Assembly (NCBI GenBank): GCA_026770705.1
Contig: JANJGN010000006.1
Location: 44,020,001-44,084,000, forward strand
Source: Isurus oxyrinchus
Taxonomy: Eukaryota
DNA: 64,000 nt
Direction of reading: 5' to 3'
This document shows positions 898 to 53,330 of the stretch, piece after piece; positions within the stretch are counted from its first letter, which is position 1; each line of letters begins with the position of its first letter. The notes under the pieces are model-generated. The model ran no database searches. It worked only from the letters and a program-made list of their open reading frames with translations, and was not told where the DNA came from. The translations under genes were made by a program, and so were the position numbers.

Positions 898-1165
898 ATG
901 CAACAGAACATTTGGAAGAGCTCTTTTTAATCTAAAGTTTATATTGTCAGCATCTGTGATCTTCTGTGGGCGATGCAGTGGTGACCTGGAATAAAACACA
1001 ATTATAATGAGAAAATATAATTATGTAATTTGACTGTTTCTGAAATCTATCACATTTATTTTTATGAATAAATATTATGAGCCTGCTTTCCAATGGCATT
1101 GAAAATGAGATTAGAGGGTTGTGTGAATAGTTTCAGGATAATTGTCAGACTGTTAGGCATTCTGC
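898..1165 (+). pseudogene. PKHD1: PKHD1 relic, human aa ~500-650
   Basis: MQQN/LEELFLI resembles IQTTIEELLAV; IFCGRCS resembles PFCGRFS; KYNYV resembles QYTHL; D*..DC resembles DW..DC. There is an internal deletion of about 100 nt. Confidence 0.6.
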
Positions 1166-1719
1166 ACCTTGTTCCTTGAGTCCTTAGATGTTCTGATCTG
1201 AGATGGTCCCAGAACCAGATACAAAGCCTATCCACTAATGACTTGGGATGTTACTGGAAATTTCATTGCTTGGATGAAACCTGGAGACATTGAGGCTGGA
1301 ATGTTGGGAAAACTGCCACCCCCAATTTACTTCTGTGGATACTACAGATTTGTGCAAGTGTAGGCTCGGGTCTTCTCCCTTATGGAAGATCCAGAAATAC
1401 TGAGTCAAGACAAAAGGGTAGAGACCCCCACATAATAGGTCCCTTTTCTTGCTAATGCCGAGGGAATGACTATCAAGGCCCATAATGGCTTATCTATTTT
1501 TGTTCACTGGAATCCAGGCAGTTGACCATGCCTGATCTTTCCTTTACTGCTGGCAGGGAATGAAAAATTCAGCACAGTTTCTGACAATGGCCCCAGTCGA
1601 GAAGTTCCTCACACTATATCACCCGGTTCCTTGCTACTGAGTTTCTTTTGGATGTTTCCAGTCAAGATTACAGCTAATTGCAAAGCTGCACTAAAGGCTG
1701 AGGAAGCTAGTCATTTGGA

Positions 1720-1860
1720 ATTTTAGAAGGGAAGGCAGGAACAGGAGGAGGCAATTCAGAACCTTGAGCCTGTTCTACCATTCAATTAGATCACAGCTGA
1801 TCTGTATTGCAACTTATTTACTCACCTTGTTTCTTTGACCTTTAAATCACTTCTTAACAA
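1720..1860 (-). mobile_element. CR1-type LINE 3' end fragment
   Basis: gcaggaacaggaggaggcaattcag...cattcaattagatcacagctga, similar to 3210-3300 and 15670-15740. Confidence 0.6.
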
Positions 1861-2029
1861 GAGGAAAGAGTAGCATGGAAAGCTGAAGATGCTGGGTGAA
1901 ATGTGGCTGCAGCCTACAATGACCACATCAAGGAGTTCATATTAGAATGGAATGGGTTAGAGTGATCTAGTGATTGAGATCAATAACTGGTGACCTTCTG
2001 GCTGTACATACTAGTGTGTTATTCATGGA

Positions 2030-3000
2030 AAGTACACAGTTTAGATATCTGCATTTGGTAGTTGTGGAGAGGATAGTAATGCACAACTTTACATTGAACT
2101 GGTGCGAGAATACAGCTGTGTTAAATTTAGTTTTTTTTTAATACTATTCAGGGCTCAGCTCAGTGCTGCAGATATTACAGCATCTGTATAGTTTGGTACT
2201 ATGCAACAAGCCTAAAGAATTCACTTCAGTTTTTAAAGTATTGATGGGGCTCTACATCTCTGTCATCTTCAGCACTGCTTTCTTAAAATTCTGTGATAAC
2301 ATGTGGCATGCTGAACTTTCTGTTCCAGCATTTCTGCCAGAAAAGTGTTGCAGAAGGATGAAATAACTGTATCTATGTTTTGATTAAATTCCAAATACAA
2401 TCCCCATCACTTACTCTGGCCATGCTTATCACGGCAGTCACCTATATCAGGCAAATAGTGCTAATTTGCAGGTATCATAGGAGTTGATTATAAAGGTGCA
2501 GTTGAGAAGACAGTAAGCATGCCTCTTATGCCAGGCAGACATTTTCATATCGATTTCTTTTCTTGCCCTGCCAATTCAGTCCACTCCCATTGGATTTGAT
2601 AAAAAGACATTTCCACAAGCTTCCATGCAGAGAAATAGCTCTCTTAGAGTAGAACTTTAATGATACTCTTAGTCTTACAGTTGCACAATTGAAATCAAGA
2701 GCAGAAGAATCCCACACATACACCTGGGTGTCTATTCCTGCAAGTGGCCACTCCACAAATGCTTGGTTGGGATAATGGTTCTCGATTAGAATAGAAAGTT
2801 AGAAGTTGGAATTGCAGTTTGGAATTTCACACTCAAACTTCTCTCATTATTTTCCCAGCTGTTACAGATGGAGGACAGTTACAGCTAGCCTCCTGCATTC
2901 CCTCCACTTGTGAAAACATGCATCACCTATAACGGGCAAATCACTTAAACACAAATGTACCTGCTCAAAGCAGTGTGGACTGTATTCATGCATCAGTGCT
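2030..3000 (+). pseudogene. PKHD1: PKHD1 relic, human aa ~740-1070 (first IPT/TIG region)
   Basis: QILQHLYSLVLCNKPKEFTS vs [33 protein letters not shown]..PISG vs NPAAATRVVYDGG..PIFG; PG...SVHSHWI**KDI vs PG...CVHSVWYSIDGDI; D-GG vs DIGG. Confidence 0.7.
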
Positions 3001-3209
3001 AACATTTGCATTGAGTTATTGTGCAAGGTAGATTGTTATGTTTTCCTAATGACTTAATGGGGAAATGCACCGTGAGGTGTGGCACTGAACTGTACAGACC
3101 AGTGAGATCCCTGTTCTGTGCAGAATTAGCTGGCTTCTGTGGTAAGCCCTTAGTATCTCAGGGAAGAGGACTAATGTTTCCAACATAAGAAGAGAAAACG
3201 TTGGAAATA

Positions 3210-3494
3210 ATAACATAAGAATTAGGAGCAGGAATAGGCCATTTGGCCCTCAAACCTGATCACCATTCAACAAGATCATGGCTGATCATCTCCCTCAACC
3301 CCAATTGTCTGCACTGTCGACATATGTCTTAATTCTCTTAGTACTCAAAAATCTATCAACTTCTGCCTTGAATGTACTCAACATATGAACATCCACAGCT
3401 CTCTGGAGTAGAGTTCCAAAGATTCACAACACTTTGAGTGAAGGAGTTTCTCCTCACCTTAGTTCTAATGGATGGACGTCTCACTCTGAGATTG
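3210..3494 (-). mobile_element. CR1-type LINE 3' end fragment
   Basis: aacataagaa tail plus ctctggagtagagttccaaagattcacaac (reverse complement of the VVNLWNSL motif). Confidence 0.75.
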
Positions 3495-6345
3495 CGGGCG
3501 GAATCGTTCATGCCCGCTGGTATTGGGTGTGCTTGGTGGTGTGAGCGGACAATATGGAGAGAAGGCCAAAAATCAGTTTCATGTTGTCATGAAACCAGTT
3601 TGCAATCATCTGATCAGCCCATTGATGGCAGGCCTTGTTTCCTGCCGTTGGATGTCAGAAACCTCATTGTAATACATCTGCATATCATTATAAACCCAGC
3701 GTGCCAGAATCATCCCCCACGCTGGATCGTCCGCCCACGTCAGTGTGATTGCGTGCTGCTGCAGAACATGCCTTGACAAGTGTGATGTGCAGAAGTTGGG
3801 ATTACCCACCAGGGCCTTGCTCAAATCGCGGACATCCGAGGAGCAGAAGATGCAGGAGCCCGACACCAATGGCACACTGGAGGAACATCCATGGCAAGTG
3901 GGTGGATTCTTATGGACATGGCTCCACTGCGAAGTAGCCTGTGAAGGTTAGAAAGTCACCGTTGAAGCTCTACTCACAATGGATGATCATCGAGGATGTG
4001 CAGAGGATGGTCCAGCTGTGTTTGGCAGAGGAATATGCACCAGGGGGCAGGAGAGGATGGTCTAGGATCGATTGGGAAAGGTAGGTGTGTCAGGATGGGG
4101 TGTGGTTGGGAGGGGGGAAATGAAGGTGTCAGGATGGGGTGAGGTTGGGAGGGAGGAATGAAAGTGTCAGGATGTGGTGAGGTTGGGAGGGGGAATGAAG
4201 GTGTCGGGGTGGGGGGAGGTTGGGAGTGGGAGTCTGTGGGGAGGAAGGAGTGCAGAGAGGAGAGGGAGTAAGGCTGGAGGAAGAAGTAAGGCTAGAGGAA
4301 AGAGTTGGGAGAGGGGAAGGACTAAAGATGGTGGAAGAAGTAAAGATGTCTGAAGGAGTCAGGAAGGGGGAAGGACTAAAAAGGGAGCAGGGTGGAGTCC
4401 GGGGGCTTGAGGCCCAGGTTGGGGGGGGAAGGTGTTCCGACAGGAAGGTGGGGGGGAAGGGGCCCAGAGGGGGGGAATATCCAGATGAATGAACAAGGGA
4501 GGGATCTGGTGGGTTGATGACTGCCTCTTGGGGAGTGAACTGAGGGTGGGTCTGGACTGAGGGAATAGTGAGAATGACCAAGGGTGGAGTGAGGTGGTAG
4601 GGTGAGAGAGTGAGCGTTTGACGGTAGCGGAATAAAGGACAAGCGAGGATGGCTGGTGGGGACTCGGTGGCAAACACAGATCCTGAGATTGGGAAGGAGG
4701 TGGTCAGGAAATTAAATTGGATGGGTGTGGGATTTTCAGGAAGGAAGGAAATTGCACATTCACCTGGACATCCCTGAAGGAAATGGGTTGTGGATGTAGG
4801 TTATGGAAGGGAGGTGGAATGTGATGCCGGGGAATCAACAGTGATTGAGGAAAGGAACTGGGTGTCTGGGGGAGGGGAAATGACAAGGAGAGCTTACGAA
4901 AAAGTGAATCAAGGCTGTCTCGTCTAAATCGAAAGTGAAACAACAGTCTGGGTGGGCGAGATCAGATGCTGCATGGGAGTGTGATCAGTGGGTGGGTGGA
5001 GATGCAGGTCAGCTCAGATAGGCAACTGAAAGAGAACCCCAGTCGGCAGCATTCAAAATGCTCAGGACATTGAGGTGTGTATGATATGTGAAGGATCCAC
5101 ATGCGTGGGAGAGTGCTTGCACGAGGTTCTGAAAAGCCCTGCCACACACGCACTCTTCTCCCTCCAGAATCACTTGTTGGCCAGCTGATTCGGACCTTAC
5201 AGATGCCTTATCCCCAGCAGTCCTCCAAGTGCCAGGGAGCTCGGCTGAATCTGTGTCATGTGGTGATCACCAGATTGTGAACCTAAGCCTTCTCTAAATG
5301 TAGATCCCACTGAGGTGTGTGTCTCTGTACTGGTGGAGGGCGTGGGTAAGCACTGTGACGAGTCTTCCAGGCTGCTTATTTCCTATGGAGGTGAGGACAT
5401 AGTTGGAGCTGAGGGACTGGCTGGCTGAGGGTGTCAGTTGTTTGGCAAAGCTCCCTGTGAACCGAAGTAGAGATAATTAGTGCAGGGCAGCAGAGTCAAA
5501 CGTAAGAGAGAGAGAGAGCACGCACAGTTGCGTTGCGAGAGGGATGATGTGGTGCAGGATCCTCATGTGGGTGTTCAATGCTGACCTCATCATTGCCACA
5601 GGCACAGTCCACGTCCTGACCAGTCACACGATGGTTCATTCCTCAAAGTGATTGAGGAGTCTGGGACTTCTCCCTGCTGTTGTAAGCCAGCTTCTCCTGC
5701 ATGAAAACAGATGGAAAGAGTGTGAGCAGGACACATGGCACAGCGTGGAATGTTTGTTTGGTGAGCAGAGCCATGAACAGGATAAGGACGTGAGCTCAAG
5801 AAGATATGAGCCTGATGGAGATGTGAGGGTGTGTGTGAGAGTTAATGGTGTTGCCCCTTGAGGTTTAAGATCCCTGTGGATGTGTGATGGATTTGTGAGT
5901 GTGTGAGCTGAGAGTGAGAAGAGTGAGTTACCCTGGCAGAAAGGATATGAGACCATTAATCCTGTAGCAGCACTGGGTGGCTGTCCTCTTTTGCAGGGCA
6001 CTAGCGCTGACCACTGCTGCCACTGCTTCCCATGCTGGATTGGTGATGCAGCTGCCCATCCTGCAGCCAGAGCAGGGGTAGAGAACATCATGACAGGCCT
6101 CCATGGCGTTCAAAAGGCGCTCAAGGGACACATTACTGAAGCGGGTGGCTGTGGGGCCATGTCCTCCACGCAGCAGTCATGGGCTGGAAGCACTGAGAGG
6201 TGTGTGCACGGCTGCACTTTACATGCGCTGCCCGGTATGAAGAAAAGGCGAGGAGATGGCATGGCCGACAAATGAGAACCCGCCGCCATGGAAACGGCGT
6301 TTCCCAGGAATGCATAATTAATTTGGTGGGTTTGGGATGATATGG
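3495..6345. mobile_element. Degenerate PIF/Harbinger element: transposase-side remnants (+) and Myb/SANT-like gene remnant (-)
   Basis: Begins gggcggaatc. 3505-3790 is the reverse complement of 56080-56400. The minus strand at 5931-6180 encodes VLYPCSG..NPAWEAVAAVVSASALQKRTATQC, homologous to 63472-63712. Confidence 0.7.
4085..4900. repeat. Purine/G-rich low-complexity tract with short tandem units (gtgtcaggatggggtgaggttgggaggg)
   Basis: About 3-4 imperfect ~42-nt units at 4085-4230, then G/A-rich sequence. Confidence 0.8.
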
Positions 6346-6659
6346 CAATAAAAGATGAACCATTACCATCCAGTGTAACAGAACTCAAGTCCTTCCTTGG
6401 TATGATCAACTACCAAAGCACTTCTTACCTAGCCTGTCAACTGTTTTGACACCATTACTCTCACTGCTAAAAAAAGAACCACTGTTGGCCATGGGGTTCA
6501 CAACAGAAATAAGCTTTTGTGAAAGCGAAGAAACTGCTGCATTCGTCGTGTTTATTAGTACACTATAACCCATCAAAAGAGCTAGTGTGAATATGTGATG
6601 CCTTTCCTTATGGTGTAGGATCACATAAAATGGAAAATGGATCAGAAAGGTCCAATGGC

Positions 6660-6825
6660 TTTTTTTTAATATTCATTCGTGGGACATGGGCTTCGCTGGC
6701 TGGGCCAGCATTTATTGCCCATCCCTAGTTGCCTTTGAGAAGGTGGTGGTGAGCTGTCTTCTTGAACTGCTGCAGTCCATGTGGTGTAGGTGCATCCACA
6801 GTGGTGTTAGGAAGGGAGTTCAAAA
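6660..6825 (-). mobile_element. HER1-type LINE 3' tail (or tail-sharing SINE) nested in the Gypsy element
   Basis: Near-identical to 29490-29650, 17045-17160 and 19790-19917; reverse complement of 60390-60535. Confidence 0.8.
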
Positions 6826-7816
6826 GGTTCTATGTCTCGAGAAACCTTTCCCGAGCAGAGACGGGCTATTTCCAGTTAGAAAAAGAAGGATTATCAGTAG
6901 TATTCTGTGTAAAAAGTTTCTCTAGCATTTCGCCATTGTGTCAGACCATGAACCATTAACACGATTATTCAGTGAGGATAAGGTTATTCCGCCAACAGCA
7001 TCAGCAAGAATACAAGGCTGGGCACTGACATTAACTGCATATGAGTATACTTTCATGTACTGCCCTGGCCTACACATTGTAAATGCAGATGCACTCACTC
7101 ATCTCCCGTTACCAGATAGTATTGAAAATACTCTCATTCCACAAGAATTAGTGCTATTACTGAATTTCTTAGATTCTTCATCTGTGTGCACGAAATAAAT
7201 TAGAAATTGGATAAATAGAGATCCAATAGTGTTGAAAGTCAGAGACTTTGTTTTGCAAGTGTGGCCAAACTCGCCTGTATCTGAAGAATTGAGAGGATTC
7301 CATGTCAGAAATGTGGAATTAAGCTTCAAGATGAAATTGTGATGTGGGGATGTCATCCCTTCACAAGGTAGAGAGCCACTCTTGACAGAGCTCCACAGTG
7401 TGCATTTGGGCATATCAAAGGTGAAAATGCTTGCATGAAGCTATGTCTGGTGGCCAGGCATTGAGAGTGACATTGAAAGCATTGTCAAGCACTGTCTCCT
7501 CTGACAGCATCAACAGAAGTTGCCTGTTTCATATCCCCTGCATCCATGGGAGTCGCCTTGTTGACCCTTTGTTCATCTGCATATTCATTATGTAGGTCCA
7601 CGCTTAAGAACCATGTTTTTGTTAATTGTAGATGCACATTCAAGATTGATGGATGCTTATGAATTCAAATTGCCAATGTCTGAACATAACTATTGAGAAA
7701 CAATGTCACTGTTTCAGCATTAATGGCCTACCTGAAATTGTAGTTTCTGATAATGGTACAGCCTTTACCAGCACCGAGTTTCAGGAATTTATGGACCTGA
7801 ATGGAGTCTGACATGT

Positions 7817-7877
7817 TAAAATACATATTATATTATAAAACATATATTATATTATAAAACACATATTATATAAAAAA
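7817..7877. repeat. AT-rich ~20-nt tandem repeat (three copies) inside the integrase
   Basis: aaaatacatattatattat-type units. Confidence 0.85.
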
Positions 7878-9009
7878 CAGTCCCTTGGCACCCCTCATTG
7901 AATGATCTAGTCAAGAGGGCAGTACAAACTTTGAAGCCTGGTATGAAAAGATTATGGGAAGGCACTTTGGAATCTCAACTTATCCGGTTTCATACAACGC
8001 TACATTCAACTATGGGTTCAACACCATCAGAGTTATTAATGAAACGCCATCTACCTACACTTTTACACTTGGTGTTTTCGAATTTAGGGGGGAAGGTAGC
8101 ACAGAACCAGAGTAATCAGAAATTTAACCATGACCTACACCATAAAGCTCACACATTCAGTGTAGGTGACACGGTATTAGTGCAAAGTTTTGGCAGTGGA
8201 CCCTGCTGGGCTTCGGCAGCCATTGTTTTAGAGATTGGTCCACTATCTTTCCAAGTACAAGTGGGAGATAGGATTGTCCGTAAGCACATAGATCACATTC
8301 GTGCCAGAGAGACATTCCAACAATTAACTGATCCACTTGTGATTAACATTGAACTGTCATCTTTTGAGGTGTGTATTCGACCTAGAACAGACATTCTGGA
8401 TGTTTCAGAAGAGTTGCCAAACCCTGAACTGCCGAGTTCCAATGATGTCTCATAGTGCAGCTCCAGATCCTGTCGATCCTGTTCAGGAACCTGCAGTGGT
8501 AGAGCTACACTTGCCGTATAAGAAGAGCACCTCAGAGACTTGATTTATAATCACCTGAAATTGTACATATGTTTGTTGGATTATTAAAATGTATTTCTGT
8601 AAAGAGTAATTGTAAAAATCTAAAGGGGGAGGAAATGTGGCAACTGGATGTAGCCATTCCGTCCTGTCAATCACAGGTCATGTGATGTACTTTGGGGGCT
8701 CCGACCAGTGAACTCTTAGCATGGGCAATCTGTGGGGTGGGGCTTTTTCAATGAAAAATCTAATCAAGCGCTAAAAAATATCACTGTAATAAAGTTTAAC
8801 TGATTCTTGACGGAACCTGTCTGCTCCATTGAGTCATCACAATGTATAATTTATCCAATGTAGCATCAATTTATGATGGAAAACTTAGCTCAGGGTTGAA
8901 TAGAACACTGAGATTGCACTTTAGTTCAGCTTGAGACAGCGAATGGGGAGTGAGATGGAATGCTGCTGTTTTAACCCTAACTGGAGGATATCACAGCTAT
9001 TTAAGACTA

Positions 9010-9600
9010 GATCTCAGATGAGGAGTCTGCCAGTACAGAGGTGGTGGATGTGTAGTGCGAGTTGGTAGAGAGGGTAGACCTGGATGAGCTCAACATACTT
9101 GTGAAAGCTGGCATGTAGAGGGGTGGGAAGAGAACCCATTGTTGGAGAAACTCTGGCTATGATCATAGAGGTAAGACTGGAACCAATCTCACTGAGCTGG
9201 ATGGCAGCGAGAAAAATTAGAGAAAGGATGGACATCAAAAGCCGCAGGGCGATCTAGGTCACAATTACAGAGGATGTCATTGCAACTTGGTTTGGAGCTG
9301 TTTCAGTGCAGTGACAGTGACCGTGGCAGAATTGGAGAAATTCAGAAACGGACTTGCAGGAAGATGGGCACTGGGGACAATAACATTTTCAGAGGAAAGG
9401 GACTTTGGAGAAAAAGTGGTAGTTTGCAAGTACAGAGGTATTGAGAGTTGTTTTCCTTAGGAGGGGAATTTTGAATGTGGAAGGGGCAGTGCCTGAGGAT
9501 AGTGAACTTTATAAACTACTTGAACTGGCATGGGGATCAGGAAAGGAAGTTGGGTGGTCAGTGGGTTTAGGTTTAGTGGGAATGGGGTGAATAGGGTGCA
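9010..9600 (-). mobile_element. Old L2-like LINE RT fragment
   Basis: The minus strand resembles the PLPLPHSKFP..LLSKVP..ENVIV..NSEFLQF..HCTETA region typical of L2 RT. Confidence 0.55.
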
Positions 9601-9604
9601 AAAG

Positions 9605-10135
9605 TCAGGAATTTATTCTAAGTCTGTATAAAACACCAGTTCGGCCCGCTTGGAGCATTGTGTTCAAATCTGGGCACCACACTTCAGGAAGGATGTGAAG
9701 ATTTTGGAGAGGCCATGGTAGAGATTTACTGGAATGGTTCCAGGGATGAGGGGTTACCGCTCTAGAGGCTGGGGTTGTTCTCCTTAAAGCAGAAAAGGCT
9801 AATAAATGTATTTAAAATCATGAGAGTTTATATAGAGAAAATAAAGACAAATTGTTACCAATGGCTGAAGGGCTGAGAGCGAGAGGACACAAATTTAAGG
9901 TGATTGACAAATGATCAGAGGCTTTTTTGCAATGAATGGTTGGATCATTTGGTCTGACAAGTCGGTGGAAGCAAGGTCAATCCTAGCTTTCAAAAGAGAA
10001 TTGGATATGTATTTGGAAGGAGAAAAATGTTACAGGGATTTGGGGAAAGAACGGATTGCTGCTCAAAAGAGCCTGCCCAAGCTTGATGGGTCAAATGGCC
10101 TCCTTCTATGTTGTACTATTCTATCCACTTTTTAG
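9605..10135 (+). mobile_element. CR1 LINE 3' part
   Basis: LYKTPVRP/LEHCVQIWAPHFRKDVKILE and a tattctat tail. Confidence 0.8.
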
Positions 10136-10199
10136 ATTCCATTGTGTGTGGCTCTCCTTATGTGGAAGGATGGTTCTTGATTTCAAATTATAAAGGTTA

Positions 10200-10290
10200 A
10201 ACCTTACAAACAGTAGAGGGATGGCCATTCACTGTCCCCTGAGTTGGAAGAGATGAAGTGAAAGATTTAGCTGTTCAGAAGACTTCCGCA
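10200..10290 (+). pseudogene. PKHD1: Weak PKHD1 relic, human aa ~1120-1145
   Basis: TNSRG..VGRDEVKDLAVQ vs SNIAGG..VARLMNYTDLDVE. Supported mainly by collinear position. Confidence 0.35.
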
Positions 10291-10989
10291 AAGTCTTTTG
10301 GACAGAGAATGAAAATGAATATGGTGCAGGGTGTTTTGATGAACTGATTGTTCAATCATTGTCATATTTTATATATTATACACACAGACTTTAAAATAAT
10401 ATACTCAATTGTAATACATTAGTATTGTGTGCCAAAAAATTGAAATTCCAGAACAAACAGAATTGTCGAACTTATTTAAATTCAGTAATTAAAAATTGTT
10501 ACATAATGTGACCAATGGGCCCGGAAACAGGAAAAACACAAGGGCCCATGATTTCTCTCCCTCACTCTACTGTAGGGCAAGTCTTAAGTAAGGAGACCAA
10601 AACTGCACGCAGTACGTCATGTGTGGCCTCAACAATATCCTGTATAATTGTTGTAAGTCTTCTTTATTCTTATACTCCACTCCCTTTGTCACAAAAGCTC
10701 ACATATTATTTGCCTTCCTGATTGTTTGCTTTGCCTGAATGTTAACTTTCTGTGGCTCATGCACATTACACCCAAGTTCTTTTAACCTGTTGGCATTTCC
10801 AGCATTTTTGGTTTTTATTTCAGACTTCCAGCATCCAAAGTATTTTGCTTTTGTATTAACTAATGTTTCCACTTCTGTGAAAATATTTGGTTTTCCCCAT
10901 TAGAAAGTTTGCATCAGATTGAGACAACATCCAGTTTGATTGTTGGCCCATGGTGGAAAATAAATCACTGAAACTCATATGCCTGTAAT

Positions 10990-40540: not shown

Positions 40541-41744
40541 GATGGGCTTCTGATGACAGCCTGTATGCGTTTTTCTCGTCTGTGTCCTCTGGGGTGAGTT
40601 GTTTTTGAATTGGTTACCAGGTCGCCACTGGACCCGGCAGACATTGAGCTCCCGCCCCCGCACGCTGATGCCAGAGTCGTGTCTTGCACTGGATGGGCCT
40701 TAATTGGCTGGCCCGCGTAAAATAGCGCTGTGGAGCCGACCGTCCTCACCCGCTCCTGCTGAGCACGCACGACCAATGTCAAATTCTGGTCCAGGAAGTC
40801 CTAATAAACCTGATTCTCAACAAATCTGATCAATATAGATCTGCAGCCAACAAAATCAATTGAAAAATCGTGACCAAGCTATTTAATTGCTCTGGTCAGT
40901 CCACGCATTGCATACTGAACCCAATTCGGTTTGCCTAGGCACAAGGAAGAGAATGAAGCAGTAGAATTAGTGCAGAGAAGAATCTTGAGGCTGATCCTTC
41001 ATGTCAAAGGTTGAGCTGTGAGGGAAGACCAGAGAATATCAGGCTTTACATTGCAGAAAGGGATTATCGACCAGGAGATCTTCTAGAGATAAATAGGGTA
41101 CTTAATAGAATGAGGAGGGTTGATCCAGAATATCATTTTAAATTGCAACAGTAGGATGAGGGGACACAGGTTCAAACTAGTAAAGAGTAAATTTGGGACT
41201 TATTAAGAAATTCTACTTCAGACAAGGAGTGATCAACACATGGAATGGGCTCCCAGGAACACTGGAGGAGCTGAAAACACTGGAATAGTTTCAAAAATAA
41301 ATTCAGGTGGGATTTTCCAGCCCCGCCTGCAGCCAGGATTGTTCGATGCCACTGAAAGTCAATGGATATTTGGCTGGGCTGCTGCAATCCCTGTCACGGC
41401 AGGGCCGGAAAATCTGGCCAAAATGTGGGCACTTAGGATCTCTGGATGGGTGAATAAAAACTAGGTTTTCCTTGTATGTAATTTATCTTGTGATCATGTA
41501 AATATGGATAACTTAAAGGAACAAATCCACCTATAGCTTTGCACAACTAAGTAGTTTAAAGATGCCTATAGTGAGAAATTGAAGTGTCACATTGAAACAG
41601 TGATGGATAGTTTTCTGATGTTGGGGTTAAGGCTTGAATTGTGTGGATGGAGCTTTATTCTTCCCCTTGCCATGGTGTGTCTAAACCATGACCCATAGCC
41701 CATAAACCCTGATAATTTGGTCAACAAATACAGTCATACCTAGC

Positions 41745-42212
41745 AAAAGGAATGGTTGTGGTTGTTGGGGGTCAAAGATCTCAGCTCCAGGGACATCACT
41801 GCAGGAGTTCCTCAGTGTCCTCGGCCTAACCATCTTCAGCTGCTTCATCAATGACCTTCCTTCTATAATAATGTCAGAAGTGGAGTTGTTTGCTGAAGAT
41901 TGCATGATGTTCAGCACATTCGCGACTCCTCAGATACTGAAGCAGTCCATGTCCAAATGCAGCAAGACCTGGACAATATCCAGGCTTGGGCTGACAAGTG
42001 GCAAGTAACATTCACTTCACTCAAGTGCCAGGCAATGATTAACTCTTAACAAGAGAGAATTAATCATTGCCTTTTTCATTCAATGGCATTACCATTGCTG
42101 AATCCTCCTCTATCAACGCCCTGGAGGTTCCATTGACCAGAAACTGAACTGGATTAGCCATATAAATACTGTGGCTCCAAGAGCAGGTCAGGAGCTAGAA
42201 ATCGTGCAGCAA
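41745..42212 (+). mobile_element. HER1-type LINE RT fragment
   Basis: Matches 59230-59670. Confidence 0.85.
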
Positions 42213-43380
42213 TCTTCAGTACTTTCCAAGCTCCTACCATACATATTGTAATCCCTTGCCTTGTTAGTCCTCCCCAAGTCCATTAGCTCACACTTTTCTG
42301 GGTTGGATTCCATTTGCCACTGCTCTGCCCACCTGACCAGTCCATTGATATCCTCGTGCAGTTTACAGCTATCCTCCTCACTGTTTACCATCCTACCAAT
42401 TTTTGTATCATCAGCAAACTTCTTGATCATAGCCCCTACATATAAGTCCAAATCATTTATGTACACCACAAACAGCAAGGTCCCCAGCACTGAGCCCTGT
42501 GGAACCCCACTGGAAACAGACTGCCAGTCACAGAAACATCCCTCTACCATCACCCTCTGTTTCCTGCATCTCAGCTAATTTTGGATCCAACGTGCCACTT
42601 TACCTTGGATCCCATGGGCTTTTACTTTCTTGACCAGTCTGTCATGAGGGACCTTATCAAAAGTCTTGCTAAAGTCCATGTAGACCATATCAAGTGCATT
42701 ATCGTCATTAACACACCTAGTTACCTCTTCAAAAAATTCAATCAAATTTATCAAACACAACCTTCCCTTAACAAATCCATGCTGACTATTCCTGATTAAT
42801 CCAAGTGCAGATATATTTTGTCCCTCAGAATTATTTCTAGTAATTTCCCCAACACCGAGGTTAGACTGACTGGCCTGTCATTTCCTGGTCTCCTCCCTCC
42901 TTTTTTTAAATAATGGGACAATGTTAGCAGTCTTTCAATCCTTTGGCACCTAACCTGTGGCCAGAGAGGATTTTAAAATCATTGCCAGGGTCCCTGATAT
43001 CTCTTCCCTTGCCTCCCTCAATGGCCTGGGATACATCTCATCTGGGCCTGTGGATTTATCCACTTTTAATGCCACTAAACTCGCTTGTATCTCCCCTTTC
43101 TCTAAGTTAATTTCCTCTAGTATTTCAGGTTCCGCCACCCTGATGTCTATTCCTGTGTTGTACTTTTCCATTGTGAAGACTGATGCAAAGTATTCATTGA
43201 GGACTGTACCCATGCCTTCCAGGTCCACACACACATTACCTCTGTGGTTCCTAATTGGCCCTACTCTTTCTCTAGCTATTCTCTTGTTCTTTATATATTT
43301 TAAAAGCCTTTTGCATTTTCTTTTATTCTACCACCAATGCTTTGGGAATCTACCATATTGAGCCCTCGGTATCTGCAGCC
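42213..43380 (-). mobile_element. CR1 LINE RT fragment
   Basis: SGVPQGSVLGTLLFVVYINDLD..KFADDTK; YMDFSKTFDKVPH. Confidence 0.92.
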
Positions 43381-46300
43381 TGTAGTCTGTAGAAGTGTTT
43401 TCAACAGAAGTGTTGCAGAGAGAGCATCCTGGATTATTTCCAGGCTGTGAGATAACAAGATCACAGGCTCATACGTTAAAAGAAAAAGAACAGTAAGTTT
43501 GAAGACAGAGAGAAGGTGTGGAAGTCCATTAACCAGCACTATGTTTGAAAACCTTGTTCAGGAAGAAAGACTGGAAGACAATGCAACTAAATTGTTTAAC
43601 TCAAGGCAGTTTGTGGAGTTACAGAAAAAGGATTCTGAAATAAAACAGTCGTATCAAAGAGCTTACTCAGAAACAGAGGAAGAATGTATTCCAGTATGTT
43701 ATTACCTTAAGGATAATGTTTTAATGAGAAAATGGAGGCCTTATCATGTTTCAGCAAATGAAAGCTGGAGGAAGGTGCGTCTGATTGAAAAACCATTTGT
43801 ATATAAAAATGAGATTCTGAGGATTGCTCATGAAATTCAATGAGGGCACATTTAGCGATTAGGAAGACACAAGCAGAAATAAAACAACATTTTTATTGGC
43901 CTGGATTATATAGGGATGTTGTCAAATTCTGTAGAACATGTTACACATGTCAGGTGATAGGGAAACCACAAACAGTGATTAAGCCGGCACCTTTAATTAC
44001 AATTCCAGCATTTGAAGAATTTTTACTAGGGTCATGATTGTGTAGGTCCCCTCCCTAATATGAAAAGCGGAAATCAGTACTTACTGATAATTATGGATGC
44101 ATCTACCAGTTTCCTGAAACAATACTTTTGAGAAATATTACAACAAAGAAAATTGTTGAAGAGTTAGTTAAATTTTTTACAAGATATGGTTAATCTAAAG
44201 AAATACAATCAGATCAGGGCTCAAATTTCATGTCACAGCTGTTTAAGGAAGTAATGCACAGTTTGGGGATAAAACAATTTAAATCAACAGCTTAGCATCC
44301 TGAGTCACAAGAGGCTTTGGAAAGATAGCATCAAACTTTAAAAACTAGGATGATGGCATATAGTCAGGATTATGCACAGAATTGGGATGGGGAATTCCAT
44401 TCCTGTTATTTGCTATTAAGGATGCACCTAATGCATTGACTGGTTTTAGTATTTTTGAACTAGTTTATGGTCATGAGGTAAGGGGATCAATGAAATTGAT
44501 GCATGAGAAATTGGGGTCAAAATTCAGAAATGACTCTCCTGGATTATGTATCAAGTTTCAGAGAGAGATAGGCCAGAGCATGTGAGTTAACTAGGGAACA
44601 TTTAAAGATATCACATCAAGTGATGAAAGTGAAGGCAGACAGGAAAGCTGCAGCTCATAGTTTTGTTGATCAGAATAAAGTTCTAGTTCTGCTACCAGTA
44701 CTGGATGACTCGTTAAAGGCAAGGTTTAGTGGGCCTTAGAGGATTGAAAAGAAATTCAGTGAAGTAGGTTATTTAATAAATACTCCAGATAGAAGAAAGA
44801 AGCAGAGGGTTCGTCATGTAAATATGCTTTAAAAGTACTTTGACAGGGAAGAAGGCCAAAAGGAGGCATTCATGGTGGTAGATAATGAGAAAGAGGTAAG
44901 AATGCAGGATTCTGTAATTGATTTTCCTCTAATCAAATTGGATAATGAAGGGGCACTTGAAAATGTAATATTGTGATTTGGAGAAGTTTTTGTGGTCACA
45001 CAAGCCTATTTGTGGCAATAAGCTGGGCAGGACGAATTTAGCTATACATGATGTATGTGTAGAGATTTCATCTTCAATAAGGCAACATCCTTATAGATTA
45101 AATGTGGCAAAGTTATCACAAGTACAGAAAGAAATTGATTTCACGTTTCAAAATGATATCATTGAATCTAGTTGCAGTAACTGGAGTTCACCTATTGTGC
45201 TAGTACCAAAACCAGATGGAACACAAAGACTGTGTGTGCACTATTGAAAGGTGAATGTGGTGACAAAAGCAGATTCATATCCTATACCACATTTGGAAGG
45301 TTGCATTGAGAAAGTGAGACAATCAAAATTTATCACAAAGGTTGACTTGCTAAGAGGATATTTGCATGTATAGGAGAGAGCAAAGGAGATATTGGCTTTT
45401 GTGACACCGGATGGACTATATCAGTTTAAAGTCATGCCATGTGGTGTGAAAAATGCACCTACAACATTTCAAAGACTGACAAAGTAATTGCAGGTCTGAG
45501 CAATTGTGCTGTTTATATTGATTACTTGATAGTTTTCAGTCAGATGTGGGAGGAGCATTTACAACATCTGGAATTATTTACTTGGTTACAAGAAGCTAAT
45601 TTGGTGGTGAACTTGGCTAAAAGTGCATTTGCAAAAGCGCAAGTTACATATCTAGGTCATACCATTATACATGGTAAGGTGGCTCTGAGGCTTGTGAAAG
45701 TCAAGGCTTTTGAGGATTTCTCCATGCTGACAGCAAAACAAGAAGTTTTGGGATTTCTGGGCATAAGTGCGTTTTATTGGAAATTTGTATTTAATTTTAG
45801 CCAAGTGTTTGCTCCATTGACTGAACTATTAAAAAAGAACAAGAAGTTTCAATGAACACAGTAGTGTCAGAAGGCATTTGACAGTTTGAAAACTGTATTA
45901 ATTACGACACCAATTTTGGCTGTTCCAAATTACACCAAGCAATTTAAGTTGGCAATTGACACAATTGGAGCCCTACTGTTACAACACTGGAATTGAAAAA
46001 CTGATAGGGTATTTTTCACAGAATTTGAATGTAGAGAAAATATTCAGTAATCGAAACGTAAACCAAGGGCAGAATATTTCCATCGGCGGTGGGTGGGGAC
46101 CTGCACACCGATACATAAAGTTGGGTTGGGACCCGCAAGCTAATGCATAAAGTGAGGTGGGTTACGTCGGGTGGAACTCCTGATGTCGCCCCACAGCATT
46201 TACATTTTCAGGTCGGCGGGCGCAGAGCCGAGTTGGCTGCGCACCCACCGACCTGTCAACAGCCTATTAAGGCCATTAAGAAACCAATTCAGCTTATTAA

Positions 46301-48153
46301 TGAACCTGTCTGCCCAACCTTAAGGTTGGTGGGCAGGCCGGGAGCCCAGGTGGGCTTGTGAAAAAACATGAAACCTCATCTGCTGGCAGGATGAGGCTTC
46401 ATGAGGGTTTTTAAATTTTAATGAAAGGTTGCAATAAAAGTTATGGACATGTCCCAACTCATGTGACAATGTCACATGACGGGGCATGGCAGAGAAAATT
46501 TTTAAACTCCTTCATCAAAAGTTTCAAAATGGAGCCGATCTCCCTGAGGCAGCACTGTGTCCCGGCTGAGGGAATCCCCCCCCAGCCCACACAGGGAGCG
46601 CATAGCGCTTTCTGGCGGACGTCACGCTGGGCGGGCCTTAATTGGCCCGCCCATGTAAAATGGTGGCACGCCCCCGACTGGGGCCGCTGATCGGGACCTC
46701 ACTCCCGCTCTCTCCCCCCCCCCCCCCCCCCGATGGGGGAATGTTTTTCCCTTGGGTTTAGTGTTCGCGTTGCAGCATTTTGAGATTTATGTGGCAAGCA
46801 ATTCATCAGAAACAATTGTGTATACAGATCACAATCCTTTAAAGTTTCTGGACAAATTTCGATTCAGAAGTGCAAGGCTGTTCAAATGGAGTATATTACT
46901 GCAATCGTTTAATCTACAGACTGTACATGTGGCGGGACAAGAAAATCTGATTGCAGGTGCGTTGTGAAGGATTTGAAGCTTAAAGGGAAATTGGACATTT
47001 AAAACCTGCACACTGCACTGGAAAGATTTCTGTTGATACCAAGGATTTATACATATATTGTTATGTTAACGCATGCATCTGGTAATGTAATAATATAAGT
47101 ATAGGAGGTAATGTAAGATGGGTTCAAAAAATGAAGTTCAGTAAATGGAACAACCACACTACTAAAATTTGGTACAAATTTCCAATAAGAGGCACTTCTG
47201 CCTAGAAATCCCAAAACTTCTTGCTATGCTGTAGGCTTTTAAATTATGATGGTTCTTTTTTTAATAAGGAGGAGGATGTCAGGAAGATATAATAATTTTC
47301 ATAATGTTTTTGGAATTTATTGTAGAGTAATAGTGGGGTCTGTGCCTATGGGTCGCTGTGTGTGTTTGTGTGTGTGGGACTTAATTGAATTAAGGCTTGA
47401 AGGCTTTGATATATCAGAATATAAGCTAGGTTTGAGATGTTAAATAGGTAAACATGGATGAAGTTTTAGAGTGTAAGGTGTAAAGGGAACATTTACATTT
47501 TTAAATAAACCAGTCTAGCTTGAATTCAAAAGAGTGGGTGAAATGTTTCATTTTCCCAGGAGAAGTTAAGAAACTATGTGTTCTGGTAAAATTGGCACTA
47601 TGATAGATTTTATTGTTAGAGAAGTAAAGTCCAAAGACATAATGAAACAATGAGAATTTGCATTCAAAGGGGAAAATACGCCTAAAGGAGAGAAGGCTGT
47701 GTATAAAGGAAGGCATTCTAAGATCTAACAAGTGTGAAAAACCTTTAGTCTCTAAGCCTCAAACTGCTGTCTGCAAACACAGAAATTAAGAAAACTCACT
47801 TTGAATTCAACTGTTCAGGGTATCATGTTACTTTGCCTGGGCCTTTTAACATCTATGTATTTTACTGTTGCCTTAATGGAGGTGAAACTGGGAGTTAGAT
47901 TAACTGGGGAAGCAAGGAGTTATAGTAGTAATTTATAAACCTATGTATGTGCTTGAAATCATTTTCTCCTCCAATTAATAAAGGGTTAATTTAGTTTTGT
48001 AAGAAACCTGTAAGACTCAGTGGTCTTATTACTACTGAGTTCAAAGCATGCATCTTGAAATATATACAAATTGCAAAACAGTTGTGGTAATAGTTTAAAG
48101 TTTCCCTTTGGGATTTGAGCAGCTCAGCATTTATCATCAGCTGTGCCATTCCA
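43381..48153 (+). mobile_element. Gmr1-like Gypsy retrotransposon (integrase upstream of RT), 5'-truncated, with 3' LTR
   Basis: Integrase HHCC at 43810-43955 (AHEI..HLAIRKT..CRTCYTCQ), integrase core SDQGSNF at ~44210, RT (WSSPIVLVPKPDG at ~45182, VYIDY at ~45510), RNase H (VYTDHNPL at ~46820), PPT aaggaggagga, then the LTR at 47277-48153. Confidence 0.9.
46067..46751. mobile_element. Harbinger-type MITE inserted in the Gypsy RNase H
   Basis: Begins gggcagaata; reverse-complement homologue of 26529-27170; splits KYSVIE.../LGLVFALQHF. Confidence 0.85.
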
Positions 48154-48171
48154 AGTGTGCCTGAGAAAACA

Positions 48172-48280
48172 AACAACAAACACAGCTGGATAATTATTTT
48201 TTAAGCTGTTGAAATTTATTCTATGCCTTTACAAGAGCAGAGAAGTATCATATTGGAATCAGCACTGCCAATATTGTAAT
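48172..48280 (+). pseudogene. PKHD1: PKHD1 relic, human aa ~2600-2630
   Basis: NKHSWIIIF*AVEIYSM vs NPRGWMALLLDQETYSL (ungapped). Confidence 0.55.
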
Positions 48281-48529
48281 CCTCTTCAACAGAAGCTTGA
48301 AGCATAATGATATGGAAAGCTGGTCACAGTAAACTGGCATGGAGCAAAGGAATCCCTTTGCAATACACTTCAGTCCAGTTTATAGCTTTCTATTTTGCCT
48401 TTCTTCAATGCACCACCAGGCATACATCAGTACTGATCCAGAGGTCCACACATGTGTGATGCTCCTTATATTTAGGGGCCTATTTTATCCCTTTTGTTTT
48501 CAATGTCTGGTGCCCCTGTTACAAGAAAT

Positions 48530-50130
48530 TCTGAGGAGGTGTTAGCGGTTTTGGCAGGCTTAAAAGTGGATAAATCCCTGGTCCCAGATGAGATGTATCC
48601 CAGGCTGCTATGTGAGGCAAGGGAGGAGATTGCACAGGCTCTGACACTAGTTTTCAAATCCTCTCTGGCCACAGGGAAGGTGCCAGAGGACTAGAGGACA
48701 GCGAATGTGGTATCACTATTCAAGAAGGCTAGTAGGGATAAACCAGGTACTTACAGGCCAGTGGGTTGAACATCAATGGTAGGGAAACTATTGGAAAAAA
48801 TTCTGAGGGACAGGATTAATATCCACTTGGAGAGGCAGGGATTAATCAGGGATGGTCAGCATGGCTTTGTTAGGGAGAGATCATGTCTAACAAATTTGAT
48901 TGAATTTTTTGAGCAGGTGACTAGTTGTGTAGATAAGGGTAGTGCAGTTGATGTAGTCTACATGGTCTTCAGTAAGGCTTTTGACAAGGTTCCACTTGGG
49001 AGAATGTTCAAGAAGGTAAGAGCCCATGGGAACCAGGGAATTTGGCAAATTGGATCCAAAATTGGCTTAGTGGCAGGAGGCAGGGGGCGATGGTCGAAGG
49101 TTGTTTTTGCGATTGGAAGATTGTGACGAGTGGTGTACCGCAGGGATCGGTGCTGGGACCCTTGCTGTTTGTAGTGTACATTAATGATTTAGATATGAAT
49201 ATAGGAGGTATGATCAGTAAGTTCGCAGATGTCATGAAAATTGGTGGTGTCGTAAATAGTAAGGAGGAAAGCCTTAGATTACTGCATGATATAGATGGGC
49301 TGGTAAGATGGGCAGAGCAGCTGCAAATGGAATTTAATCCTGAGAAGTGTGCGGTGGTGCATTTTGGGAGGACTAACATGGCTAGGGAATACACAATGAA
49401 TGGTAGGACCCTAGGAAGTACAGAGGATCAGAGGGACCTTGGTGTACATGTCCATAGATCCCTGAAGGCAGCAGCACAGGTAGATAAGGTTTTTAAGAAG
49501 ACATATGAGATACTTTCCTTTATTAGCTGAGGCATAGAATTTAAGAGCAGGGAGATTATGTTGGAGCTGTATAAAATGCTGGTTAGGCCACATTTAGAGT
49601 ACTGTGTGCAGTTCTGGTTGCCACACTATAAGAAGGATGTGACTGCACTGGAGAGGGTGCAGAGGAGATTCACCAGGATGTTGCCCGGGCTGGAGCATTT
49701 CATCTATGAAAAGAGACTGGACAGGCTAGGGTTGTTTTCCTCAGGGCAGAGAAAGCTGAGGGGGAACCTGATAGAGGTATGCAAAATTATGGGGGGCATA
49801 GATAAGAAGAAACTTTTTCCCTTAGTGGAGGTGTCAGTAACCAGGGGGCATAGATTTAAGGCAAGGGGCAGGAGGTTTAGAGGGGATTTGAGGAAAAGTT
49901 GTTTTCACCCAGATGGTGGTTGGAATCTAGAACACACTGCCTGAAGGGGTGGTAGAGGCAGGAATCCTCACAACATTTAAGAAGTATTTAGATAAGCATT
50001 CAAATTGCCATGGACTAAAGGGCTACGGGCCAAGTGCTGGAAAATGGGATTAGAATAGATATGAGTTTGATGGCCGGCAAGGACACGATGGGCCAAAGGG
50101 CCTGTTTCTGTGCTATATAACTCTATAACT
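48530..50130 (+). mobile_element. CR1 LINE RT through 3' tail
   Basis: QHGFVRERSCLTNLIEFF; SGVPQGSVLGPLLF; HLEYCVQFW; (aactctat)n tail. Confidence 0.95.
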
Positions 50131-50189
50131 CTTCTCTCTTGCTGACCTGAAGATTGGTACAAGATGATTTTTAAGATTTTAAAAATATC

Positions 50190-50435
50190 TAAAGTATTTT
50201 CTGTCCCATTCTCAACACATACCCGAGACTCTGAGCCTTTTGGTGGCCAGCTTTCCTTTTCCAAAAGTTTTACATACAAGGGAAATCCTAGTCCAACACT
50301 TGCCCATCCCCACCTCATCCTCCTGCCCACCACCATCCCCTGATCATGGGCAGCTCAATGTTTATTGGAAGAAAACACATATCTTAAAGGTAAATGGGAT
50401 TAACGCAAGAGAGAGGGAAGTAAAAATTACTATAA
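50190..50435 (+). pseudogene. PKHD1: PKHD1 relic, human aa ~2650-2715
   Basis: YFLSH/LNTYP vs YLLLVHTDLPPYP; PSPDHGQLNVYW vs PSPGQNQGCDW; EREVKITI vs EGQVQVIL. Confidence 0.55.
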
Positions 50436-51499
50436 CCTCTCAGTGCCAAAAAGTATCAGCAAGTAGGGTTAATAAAAAATCTCAGTGGAGAAACAAAAAA
50501 AACTTTATGGTGAATTCAGACAACAACAAAAAAAAACAATGGTCAGAAAAAATATGGAGGAGAGAGAAAAATAAAATTGGATAGAAAGACTTCAGTACTA
50601 ACATCAGCCTTCAGGACCCTACTTCAGTGCCACCTTAATATTACTGTATCACAGCATTTCCCTTCTGTGCCATTAAACACATCATTCATTACTATGCTGC
50701 CAAACTCTGAGATATGCTGCAATGCTGCTAATCTTCATAACCCTTTCTCTGTGGCTTCTAAACCTCAAGACTCCTTACCCCTCCCCACCATGCTATCAAA
50801 TCCAAAACCTGCTTCTACAGCTGTAAACCATAGCACCTCACCACAGTAGGTATGATAGCACAATGTTTATGACCCTGGATTAATAGAGGCTTGAATTAAT
50901 GATTTGGAGACATGAGTTTATGTCCCATCATGGCAATGGAAAGTTAAATTTATTTAATTAAATAATATCTGGAATTAAAAGCTGGCCTAAAGTGGGCTGG
51001 TTAAAAGGACCTCCTCAGTGCACTGGGACTTCATTCTAACCGTGCGGTTGAATATTAGACCCTGGGCCCCTCACTCCCCCTTATTCCCCCATCAACTCCT
51101 CATGTCCCATTCATACCAATTCTTGCCCCCACCCACTTCCAATAGCTGTCCGTACCTTCCATGCCTACCTATGCCACTCTTCCTTATGGATGATATGAAA
51201 CTTGGAAACATTGTAAACTGTGAGGACAGTCCAGAATTTCAAAAAGACATAGACCAGTTGGTGGAGTGGGCAGATAGGTGGCAGATGAAGTTCAATGCAG
51301 AGAAATGTGAGATGATGCATTTTAGGAGGATGAACATGGAGAATCATTATTAAATAAGGGAAATAATTCTTAAGGGGGGAGCAAGCTGTATTTTCCCCCA
51401 AAATTTAAAGGCCAGGGGATTTAATGGACTAGACCTTTTATGAGCATTCACGACTATCCTTAAGTCACACACTGCAGAAACGGACCTCGCTGCAGTGAA

Positions 51500-52235
51500 A
51501 ATGGGGTCTGTTTGAACGCAGCAACACCCTCTCCTAAGCCTGTGGGTGAACTTGCTGAATGTTGTGCTTGCTTTTGCTAGGCAATGGATGATTTCATCGT
51601 CCAATGTGATGTTGTTGGAGAGGTTACTCCCGAGATAACAGAACCTCTGAACTTCTGAGTTGTGGGAGTATTCATTGTGACTGTAGGGTCTTGAGGTTTG
51701 TGGCCAGGGGCAGGTAGTACAAGATCTCTGCCTTTTTCAGACTTATTGTAAAGCTAAGGCATTTTGAAGCTTGGGCAGTATGGTCAACAAGCAGCTGGAT
51801 ATCTTCTGGAGTGTGTGCTCTGAGAGCATAGTGGTTGGAGTATATATACTTAGTGGTTGTTCTGTGATTTTTGTGTGAGCCTTGAGCCTTTGCAGATTGA
51901 AGAGGTTGCCATCTGTCCTGAACAGAATGTGTATATGTATCTGGAGATCTTTGCTTGCACACAAGAGCAATCATATCCTAAACGTAGATGGTAAACAAAT
52001 GGTTGGAGCCATTACATAAATTTGATTGCTGCCATTGGTGACAGGAAAGGCATCTGATAAGGTGCCATTCTGAATTGCACTGGCCATCATGAAATGGGCC
52101 AATGACCCTGAACATTTTTTCAGGACAGCCACATTTGTCCACAGTTAACTGTGTCAAAGGCCTTGGTTAAGCCTTTACCATGTGGAGGCCTTTGTTCTGT
52201 TTGTGAGACCTTTCTTGAATTTGACGACTGCAAAG
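51500..52235 (-). mobile_element. RTE-clade LINE RT fragment
   Basis: FRTDGNLFNLQRLKAHTK and DDEIIHCLAKASTTFSK are RTE/BovB-type motifs. Confidence 0.8.
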
Positions 52236-52509
52236 ATCAAGTTGACCATTCCTCAGCCAGCACAAAAGCCATACTGTGAAGCTAGGTACACCAAGTCTGC
52301 AAGATGAATGACATTCCTGTTTAAAGAAATGAAATGCCACAATAATTTTCACAGGTGAACTTGTAGGCTGCCAGCCAGGACTAATGATGATGGACCCCAC
52401 TTGCCCAGAGCTATCTGGCTTTGAGGTGCTAGTCACTCACATTCACACCTCTGTCCACAGTTCTAAACAGGGATTGCCACATGAAGCCGAGCAGTAGGAA
52501 TTTGATTAG

Positions 52510-53330
52510 GAGAGGTTACTTGAGATGTTGACCATAGGGGACTTTTATGGATGAAGAGCAAGTCAACTCTCTTCACCATCTTAGTCCTTCCTAACCTTTT
52601 GACCCACTGTGTCTTTATTTATTTAACCTATTTTAACATGATTTGTTTGTTCTCACCAGAAACTGAAGTTTATTCCTATTATGATATTTTATGTCAACGA
52701 GTAGAAAAATGCAGGCCATACTTCACCAGTAACAAAATGATTCCTCTCATAATCTGCTATGTTACTTAGTCCTATCCTTATAACCTTTTAAAATTACACA
52801 CACTTTCTGACTACCCCTGACCAATGCCACAGGAGATCTTCCTATGTATTATTAGAATAAATTCAATTAGATTAACAGTAAATTGATTTTTACTCCTGCT
52901 TTAGAATAAGGTAAGGATGAACAAGCTGTGCGTATGTTTTTCTCCCTTACCCCAACCTCCCTCCACATGCTGCCCTCCTCCCACTCCCACCATCCATCCG
53001 TCTCCCCTGCAGCTAGTTTGATTGAAATCTTGATTCTAGTATGAAGCAATGAAATGTAAGCATGGTAACACCCACATAATATGCATCAAACAGTTCACTT
53101 CAGCGAGTGGTGTGATAATGTTAGTCAATTCTGCTTCATCCAAACCATTTTAAGAAGCTATATGAATTCTTCCATGGAGGCTTTCTGAACAGCCACCATA
53201 TGCATTAGATATTAATAGCTTAAGGATTTGAGTAATTATTTTTAGGGAGTAATTATAATTTCCATGCCTCCTACTGCAATGCTAAAAATCACAAAGCTAC
53301 TTTTAAAAATATGGTTGGTGTTACATCTTG
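52510..53330 (+). pseudogene. PKHD1: PKHD1 relic, second G8 domain and downstream region
   Basis: ILVLPN..VFIYLTYF vs VLILPN..VDTDLPFF; GNTHII vs GNERII; NSASSKPF*EA vs SSSSYEPHEA; SHHMH vs GHHVR. Confidence 0.65.

Follow-up and report, generated by a model that had tools for sequence, protein, structure and literature searches.

Two papers place PKHD1, the fibrocystin gene, in coelacanth and land vertebrates only (PMC10731465, PMC13424714). The 2023 paper gives the coelacanth as the only fish with fibrocystin and suggests that the cytoplasmic tail may be a novelty of the water-to-land transition (PMC10731465), and the 2026 review states that fibrocystin probably evolved with the vertebrate shift to semi-terrestrial life (PMC13424714). 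The 64,000-nt stretch of DNA analysed here (the window) raises the question of whether sharks had this gene and what became of it. A preliminary description had proposed a PKHD1 fossil running through the whole window, compact and collinear through 52 kb from residue ~560 to ~2850. One dead exon of that fossil, at the start of the first G8 domain (G8-1), stands; the rest of the series does not.

A PKHD1 exon of shark origin

The G8-1 motifs PQDGDNVTV and DTNTS lie on the + strand at 34931-34990, both within a single exon (Table 1) that probably corresponds to human PKHD1 exon 36. A frameshift-aware alignment of this exon to horn-shark (Heterodontus) fibrocystin scores 173, while the maximum in 554 control stretches is 41. 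The exon scores 197 in a scan of the whole window (+ strand), tblastn of the region gives E 4e-9, and its bin is matched by 95 of 120 named PKHD1 proteins at E<=0.05. Its score against the second shark protein, from Heptranchias, is 167, and over all 120 named PKHD1 proteins the median is 86.5 and the lowest value 67. Against 12 distant family members, all unnamed and over 4300 aa long, the scores are 33-61. Thus, the exon is nearer to PKHD1 (120/120 named) than to fibrocystin-L-type proteins as represented by these 12 unnamed sequences, confirming the PKHD1-type assignment made earlier; named vertebrate PKHD1L1 is absent from the best 120 of 462 protein matches.

The exon is identical to Heterodontus fibrocystin at 39 of 46 residues (85%) and to Heptranchias fibrocystin at 38 of 46 (83%), and its identity to 17 bony vertebrates is 48-64%. 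In an exon tree it groups with Heterodontus (96/86) within the shark clade (99/98), in agreement with the shark origin suspected before. The Heterodontus grouping comes from 46 columns and mostly from one shared derived glycine at residue 1935, which is E in the other 18/19 rows; the source shark is probably nearer to the horn shark than to the sevengill shark. Judged by its sequence, the exon derives from a shark PKHD1. Six residue changes are found only in the window copy, each one base away, compared with one found only in Heterodontus and two only in Heptranchias; these small numbers are compatible with relaxed selection. Identity to horn-shark fibrocystin has remained at 85%, and the earlier statement that the copy died long ago is therefore too strong.

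Searched alone, the 43-residue exon peptide matched no Pfam family, gave only chance matches in the PDB, yielded 0 of 18 candidates among proteins of up to 2000 residues, and met unnamed or Pol_BBD clusters in the ESM Atlas. The closest fibrocystin relatives in the PDB are the TMEM2 G8 domain, MET and plexin, and none is closer.

Lesions in the coding and splice sequence

The exon is 145 nt long (48 codons), compared with 157 nt expected, and carries inactivating lesions in both coding and splice sequence, so that the earlier description of this piece as broken is correct. Deletions of 4, 6 and 2 nt total 12 nt, a multiple of three. The acceptor boundary was set from the start of the alignment and from orthologue length variation at the same point. 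In horn-shark fibrocystin the G8 domain begins at residue 1920.

Table 1. Features of the window
Feature	Positions	Strand	Observation
Upstream flank	1..34838	.	TE-rich; PKHD1 signal not above controls; interpreted as intronic or as an eroded locus
Acceptor region	34839..34868	+	Pyrimidine-rich tract; final GG replaces expected AG, acceptor lost
Dead PKHD1 exon	34869..35013	+	Start of G8-1; corresponds to horn-shark fibrocystin residues 1904-1956
First frameshift	34896..34900	+	Three codons expected, 5 nt found (net -4 nt)
TAA stop	34950..34952	+	Codon 28 in ancestral frame
In-frame deletion of two codons	34972..34973	+	Three-leucine run, nearly invariant in 19 orthologues
Second frameshift	34991..34991	+	One codon expected, 1 nt found (net -2 nt)
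Splice donor GT retained	35014..35019	+	Phase 1; fibrocystin similarity stops exactly there
Downstream flank	35020..64000	.	LINE, LTR and DDE transposon remnants; PKHD1 signal not above controls

With the acceptor gone and the ancestral frame stopped, an in-frame product from this exon is impossible. Could the locus still yield an altered product, such as a secreted N-terminal form that stops short of G8-1 or a protein made through a cryptic acceptor? The donor is intact, and the AG at 34902-34903, preceded by a tract that is 68% pyrimidine, opens the conserved frame, with the G8 motif retained. However, the resulting exon of 110 nt is out of phase with the following exon. Of the five AGs tested between 34820 and 34935, none yields an open exon in the right phase, and no upstream exon is seen within the window. 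We regard this reading as highly improbable. Skipping the 157-nt exon would shift the frame too, which would leave the copy making no fibrocystin.

A second reading, in which assembly or consensus errors mimic lesions in an intact gene, draws on the high identity to the horn-shark protein and on deletions that together preserve the frame. We consider it very unlikely, given four independent lesions within 150 nt, deletions of several bases instead of homopolymer single bases, and the six private residue changes besides.

The exon has an intron-type pyrimidine tract before it and a GT donor where the similarity ends, and overlaps none of the repeats detected within the window, indicating that it is no retrocopy. 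Intronless junctions between adjacent exons, the sign of a retrocopy, were not found, the neighbouring exons being absent from the window; a processed pseudogene is ruled out on these grounds. The same features speak against a decayed duplicated fragment, carried here by segmental duplication or by a TE, with a second, intact PKHD1 at another locus of this genome. Such a fragment would fit the finding of one exon only and the intact copies annotated in two sharks, but the exon has its six residues of its own relative to both known shark proteins, and a third full-length cartilaginous-fish protein is absent from the best 120 of 462 matches. We judge a duplicated fragment to be unlikely.

The remainder of the window

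The other members of the proposed series are at chance level. The FCGR motif at 962 scores 25, which is equalled by 20% of 846 control stretches, and the score of the 850-1700 zone, at the upstream end of the series, is reached by 17% of 150 controls. Likewise, controls reach the scores of the SPTN zone at 37000-37600 (20% of 212), the G8-2 zone at 52500-53500 (71% of 126) and the next exon in 35016-35600 (22% of 218). Whole-window scores on the + strand are 37 for the previous exon, 41 for the next exon, 39 for G8-2 and 43 for the TIG block, compared with 35-45 on the minus strand and reversed controls. Without the exon, the best collinear chain scores 214, within the range of four controls (179-238), and position is uncorrelated with residue number (rho -0.06, p 0.48). 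Collinear chains of about 100 exact 4-residue matches (99-111) arise on either strand and in every control, which explains how a collinear series could be read by eye. The preliminary description had itself named, as evidence against its series, a lack of significant collinear alignment outside the one G8 hit; with a single exon present, this is what we found.

In a power simulation, exons of 30-45 residues with the same degree of decay were recovered in 92-100% of cases, and exons three times further decayed in 3-77%. Other PKHD1 exons of similar preservation are absent from the ~35 kb upstream and the 29 kb downstream. A compact fossil could still appeal to the short motif matches at 962 and 37267 and to the frequent misses among exons decayed three times as far. 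Against it, every claimed site is at chance, the chains are null, the large TIG block gives nothing, and dozens of exons would need to have decayed far faster than the 85%-conserved one. It is almost certainly wrong. The SPTN at 37267 comes, we presume, after a shark SINE tail; a second copy of that SINE-like tail was not found in the window.

Several weaker matches were rejected. The sole borderline collinear peak, 36725-36849 against residues 2487-2525 (profile score 56, control maximum 53), requires gaps and a frameshift, and presumably spans a human exon junction. The match at 19548-19682 has E 0.009 for 2 of 120 proteins, is out of order, and scores 37 against the shark protein. The match at 29873-29962 scores 66 against rabbit (control maximum 54) and falls within one copy of a repeat, 29617-30834; the sister copy of this repeat scores 36. 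A further six tblastn bins owe their matches to a single newt model, which carries retroelement domains.

The flanks are intron-like as well as TE-rich, and the downstream flank, like the upstream one, is read as intron or eroded locus. They may represent long introns on either side of the exon, or a region from which neighbouring exons were deleted. Of the 77 long ORFs, 65 were scanned, and none of these matched a non-TE family at its curated cut-off; Rfam and tRNA scans of the window gave no matches. Conserved synteny partners of PKHD1 are TFAP2B/D, MIR206/133B, IL17 and MCM3; no neighbouring gene was matched in the window.

Full-length fibrocystins annotated in two sharks

The protein search covered lengths of 2224-7079 residues. 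Of its 462 matches, the best 120 include two cartilaginous fishes only: 'fibrocystin-like isoform X3' of Heterodontus francisci (4045 aa) and 'fibrocystin-like' of Heptranchias perlo (4149 aa; NCBI/UniRef names). Both are annotated as full-length, without X residues. This pair among the best 120 of 462 is compatible with loss in other sharks and rays. The shark proteins were already present in automatic public annotation.

A shark protein shares 44-54% identity with bony-vertebrate PKHD1; a second tier of relatives lies at ~28-36%. By hydropathy, the shark proteins have one membrane helix and cytoplasmic tails of ~172 and 250 residues, compared with ~190 aa in PKHD1 and 6-9 in PKHD1L1. Long tails (45-310) occur in many unnamed distant relatives too. 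In a tree, the shark proteins cluster with coelacanth and tetrapod PKHD1 (SH-aLRT 100), and the branching follows species order: sharks, coelacanth, caecilians, amniotes. This tree comes from a quick search of 621 columns, with a tool warning that long branches meet at the outgroup.

These data support the earlier proposal that PKHD1 predates the split between sharks and bony vertebrates. Since two sharks have annotated full-length copies, this ancestry is independent of the fossil in the window.

Discussion

We think that the window quite probably lies in a decaying shark PKHD1 locus and includes one exon of it, that this is the sole copy in its genome (a unitary pseudogene), and that the gene was lost once the lineage had separated from that of the horn shark. 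The exon would have no present function and would be a record of gene loss. More broadly, it seems fairly likely that PKHD1 was present, with helix and tail, in the jawed-vertebrate ancestor and has disappeared several times since, from ray-finned fishes as well as from most of the remaining sharks and rays, the exon recording one such loss. As part of this multiple-loss reading, PKHD1 would survive in horn and sevengill sharks and, as we are inclined to believe, is not a land-vertebrate innovation.

The long-tailed shark orthologues contradict the water-to-land account of PKHD1 origin given in both papers (PMC10731465, PMC13424714). The dead exon suggests that at least one shark lineage probably lost the gene. 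If so, closely related sharks that differ in whether they retain the ARPKD gene would offer natural knock-outs, which could inform the role of fibrocystin in renal tubules and bile ducts. Decaying exons are commonplace; the finding corrects the history of a gene and offers no new mechanism.

Unlike the full-length Heterodontus and Heptranchias models, the copy in the window lacks its acceptor, is frameshifted twice, has lost two codons in frame and contains a stop. Coelacanth and tetrapod PKHD1 have the same G8-1 start as the window exon, and share with the shark proteins the TIG-PA14-G8-beta-helix-G8 layout, the membrane helix and the long tail. PKHD1L1 (fibrocystin-L) and invertebrate-type relatives belong to the same family, yet the exon scores low against the 12 unnamed ones. 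For the human FPC and FPC-L pair, one source gives 25.0% identity and 41.5% similarity (PMC13424714), whereas the other quotes 41.5% as identity (PMC10731465); the 25.0% compares with the 44-54% between a shark protein and bony-vertebrate PKHD1. Among elasmobranchs, aqp8 is described as lost in some cartilaginous fishes and kept in Heptranchias. Both this loss and that of noggin1, a lineage-specific loss reportedly seen in elasmobranchs, likewise concern genes that only part of the cartilaginous fishes have retained. In contrast to these, the PKHD1 case, in a copy that was presumably single, leaves behind a recognisable dead exon.

A PKHD1 exon in the window

The preliminary description had a collinear fossil of PKHD1 (fibrocystin) running across 52 kb of the window; one real exon stands, and the headline series around it does not. 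A tblastn search of the window with shark fibrocystin gives a single significant match (E 4e-9), and frameshift-aware alignment gives a single peak, with a score of 173 against control maxima of 51-59. The aligned span, 34869-35015, corresponds to residues 1904-1956 of the Heterodontus francisci (horn shark) protein P0001, "fibrocystin-like isoform X3", and contains two frameshifts and a two-codon deletion. The peptide from 34886-35014 matched one long protein, P0001 itself (4045 aa; E 6e-5, 74% identity). The exon is probably the equivalent of human exon 36, whose introns on either side would be tens of kilobases long.

A GT donor directly follows the exon, and on its 5' side a pyrimidine tract ends in GG, not AG. 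The position of the inferred 5' boundary is supported by the orthologues, since their lengths vary right there. A TAA codon lies at 34950-34952 in the ancestral frame, and none of the five alternative AGs tested yields an open exon in the correct phase. The exon cannot be spliced into frame.

With breaks coded as unknown, 46 residues of the exon were compared. It is identical to Heterodontus at 39 of the 46, to P0002, the "fibrocystin-like" protein of the sevengill shark Heptranchias perlo, at 38, and to 17 bony vertebrates at 48-64%. In a tree, the exon joins Heterodontus (96/86) within a shark clade (99/98), and one derived glycine is common to these two only among 19 rows. Private residue changes number 6 in the window exon versus 1 and 2 in Heterodontus and Heptranchias, respectively. 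Its scores lie at 67-173 for every one of the 120 named PKHD1 proteins (the best 120 of 462) and at 33-61 for 12 unnamed, more distant members of the family.

Tests of a collinear fossil

Each further site claimed for the fossil scores inside its control distribution. With a profile built from 19 orthologues, no score exceeds 56 once the exon and its tail of scores are set aside (control maximum 53). For the neighbouring exons, the TIG block and G8-2, scores are 37-43 on the + strand versus 35-45 in controls. Two lemur, rabbit and coelacanth references give the same null outcome save for one score of 66, which falls within a repeat. The best collinear chain scores 214 (179-238 in controls), and when the exon is excluded, collinear chaining of exact 4-mers gives counts of 99-102 on the + strand (99-107 in controls). 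The 52-kb fossil is absent from the window.

Detection power was estimated by simulation with exons of 30 and 45 residues (60 trials per cell). At the decay seen in the window exon, recovery was 92% and 100%, respectively; doubling the decay lowered it to 72% and 87%, and tripling it to 22% and 47%. Exons that are very short or have decayed very far could therefore escape detection; dozens could not have been missed beside one that is 85% conserved.

Age of PKHD1

P0001 and P0002 share the domain layout TIG, PA14, G8, beta-helix, G8, contain no X residues, and have a membrane helix and tails of ~172 and ~250 residues. In a 621-column tree (a quick search with an unnamed outgroup and a long-branch warning), they join coelacanth and tetrapods with an SH-aLRT of 100, the sharks branching first, in species-tree order. 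The overall identity of P0001 to bony-vertebrate PKHD1 is 44-54%. Layout, tails, tree placement and identity together argue that PKHD1 existed before the shark/bony-vertebrate split, the shark evidence being automatic gene models; if its reported absence from ray-finned fishes is real, that absence would therefore be secondary. The earlier proposal that PKHD1 is older than tetrapods thus holds, chiefly because of database proteins that its author did not have.

Among unnamed fibrocystin-L-type relatives of more than 4300 aa, several show a strong membrane helix and, after it, a tail that reaches up to 265 residues; long tails may thus predate PKHD1. In the alignment, no clear membrane helix is seen in the Latimeria (coelacanth) model P0017 (3893 aa), where hydropathy peaks at 1.09, and its 3' end may therefore be mis-annotated. 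The Lissotriton (newt) model P0091 (5743 aa) contains domains of retroelements, which probably reflect faulty annotation, and is the source of all tblastn matches in transposon regions.

Relatives were collected with residues 1880-2480 of P0001 as the query, a search that covered proteins of 2224-7079 residues, with at least Heterodontus and Heptranchias among its sharks, and gave 462 proteins. The best 120 of these, which were examined, comprise Heterodontus, Heptranchias perlo (91%), Latimeria (52%) and tetrapods (50-59%), with no further cartilaginous fish and no ray-finned fish. Representatives at 50% identity, among which closer sharks would hide within clusters and short fragments would rank below the best 150, show the same two tiers, with nothing above 54% among those 150. 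Since both full-length shark orthologues are labelled "fibrocystin-like", a search by the gene name PKHD1 could miss them.

Composition of the window

GC content per 2 kb is 36-53%. Repeats detected from the window alone occupy at least 22,636 of its 64,000 bases, and none overlaps the exon. ORFs of 100 aa or longer number 77; in a Pfam scan of 65, nine matched, eight to transposon families (reverse transcriptase, RNase H, DDE transposase) and the ninth to COG6_N, under its cut-off. Rfam and ARAGORN found no match in the window.

Features of the window
Feature	Position	Strand	Details
Tandem repeats, G-rich	4087-4380		periods 38, 54, 18
Repeats resembling DDE_Tnp_4 region	5666-6342, 55440-55752, 63285-63974
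LTR-retroelement pieces, decayed	6700-8455, 12846-13250, 43451-46967
PKHD1 exon	34869-35013	+	145 nt (expected 157)
DDE_Tnp_4 transposase ORF	38821-39378	+	Pfam E 1e-22
RT + RNase H match	45430-46964		Pfam
Two overlapping ORFs	61626-62610	+

The DDE_Tnp_4 ORF faces a second ORF (39787-40362, - strand), a layout that we take to recall a Harbinger-type DNA transposon. The two overlapping ORFs, which have no Pfam match, resemble a Penelope-type retroelement, with the end of an RT and a GIY-YIG domain. CpG observed/expected is 0.66-0.85 at 20001-22000 versus 0.29 window-wide; this zone, probably a younger transposon copy, surrounds the inverted-repeat partner of 26923-27088.

Discussion

The window probably lies inside the PKHD1 locus, where either long introns or deletion of the adjacent exons would account for the two flanks of the exon, and inactivation, judged from this window, would postdate the split from the horn-shark line. 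Good preservation of the exon need not mean recent loss, because galeomorph orders split in the Early to Middle Jurassic, according to a preprint (bioRxiv 10.64898/2026.02.13.705779), and mutation in sharks is slow (PMC10587355). Heptranchias, the source of P0002, also retains aqp8, which PMC13109646 describes as lost in many cartilaginous fishes; any connection between the two retentions is speculation.

We found no published report of PKHD1 in sharks, which is weak evidence of absence, as the search covered little of the subscription literature. Table S4 of PMC10731465 gives its orthologues and may bear on the species examined there; a term search of bioRxiv 10.64898/2026.09.21.753134 gave nothing on evolution. 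The exon and the shark orthologues bear on the published account of how this disease gene arose (PMC13424714, PMC10731465), which ties it to the water-to-land transition and is mistaken. The dead PKHD1 exon itself is a fresh instance of an already known sort of object.
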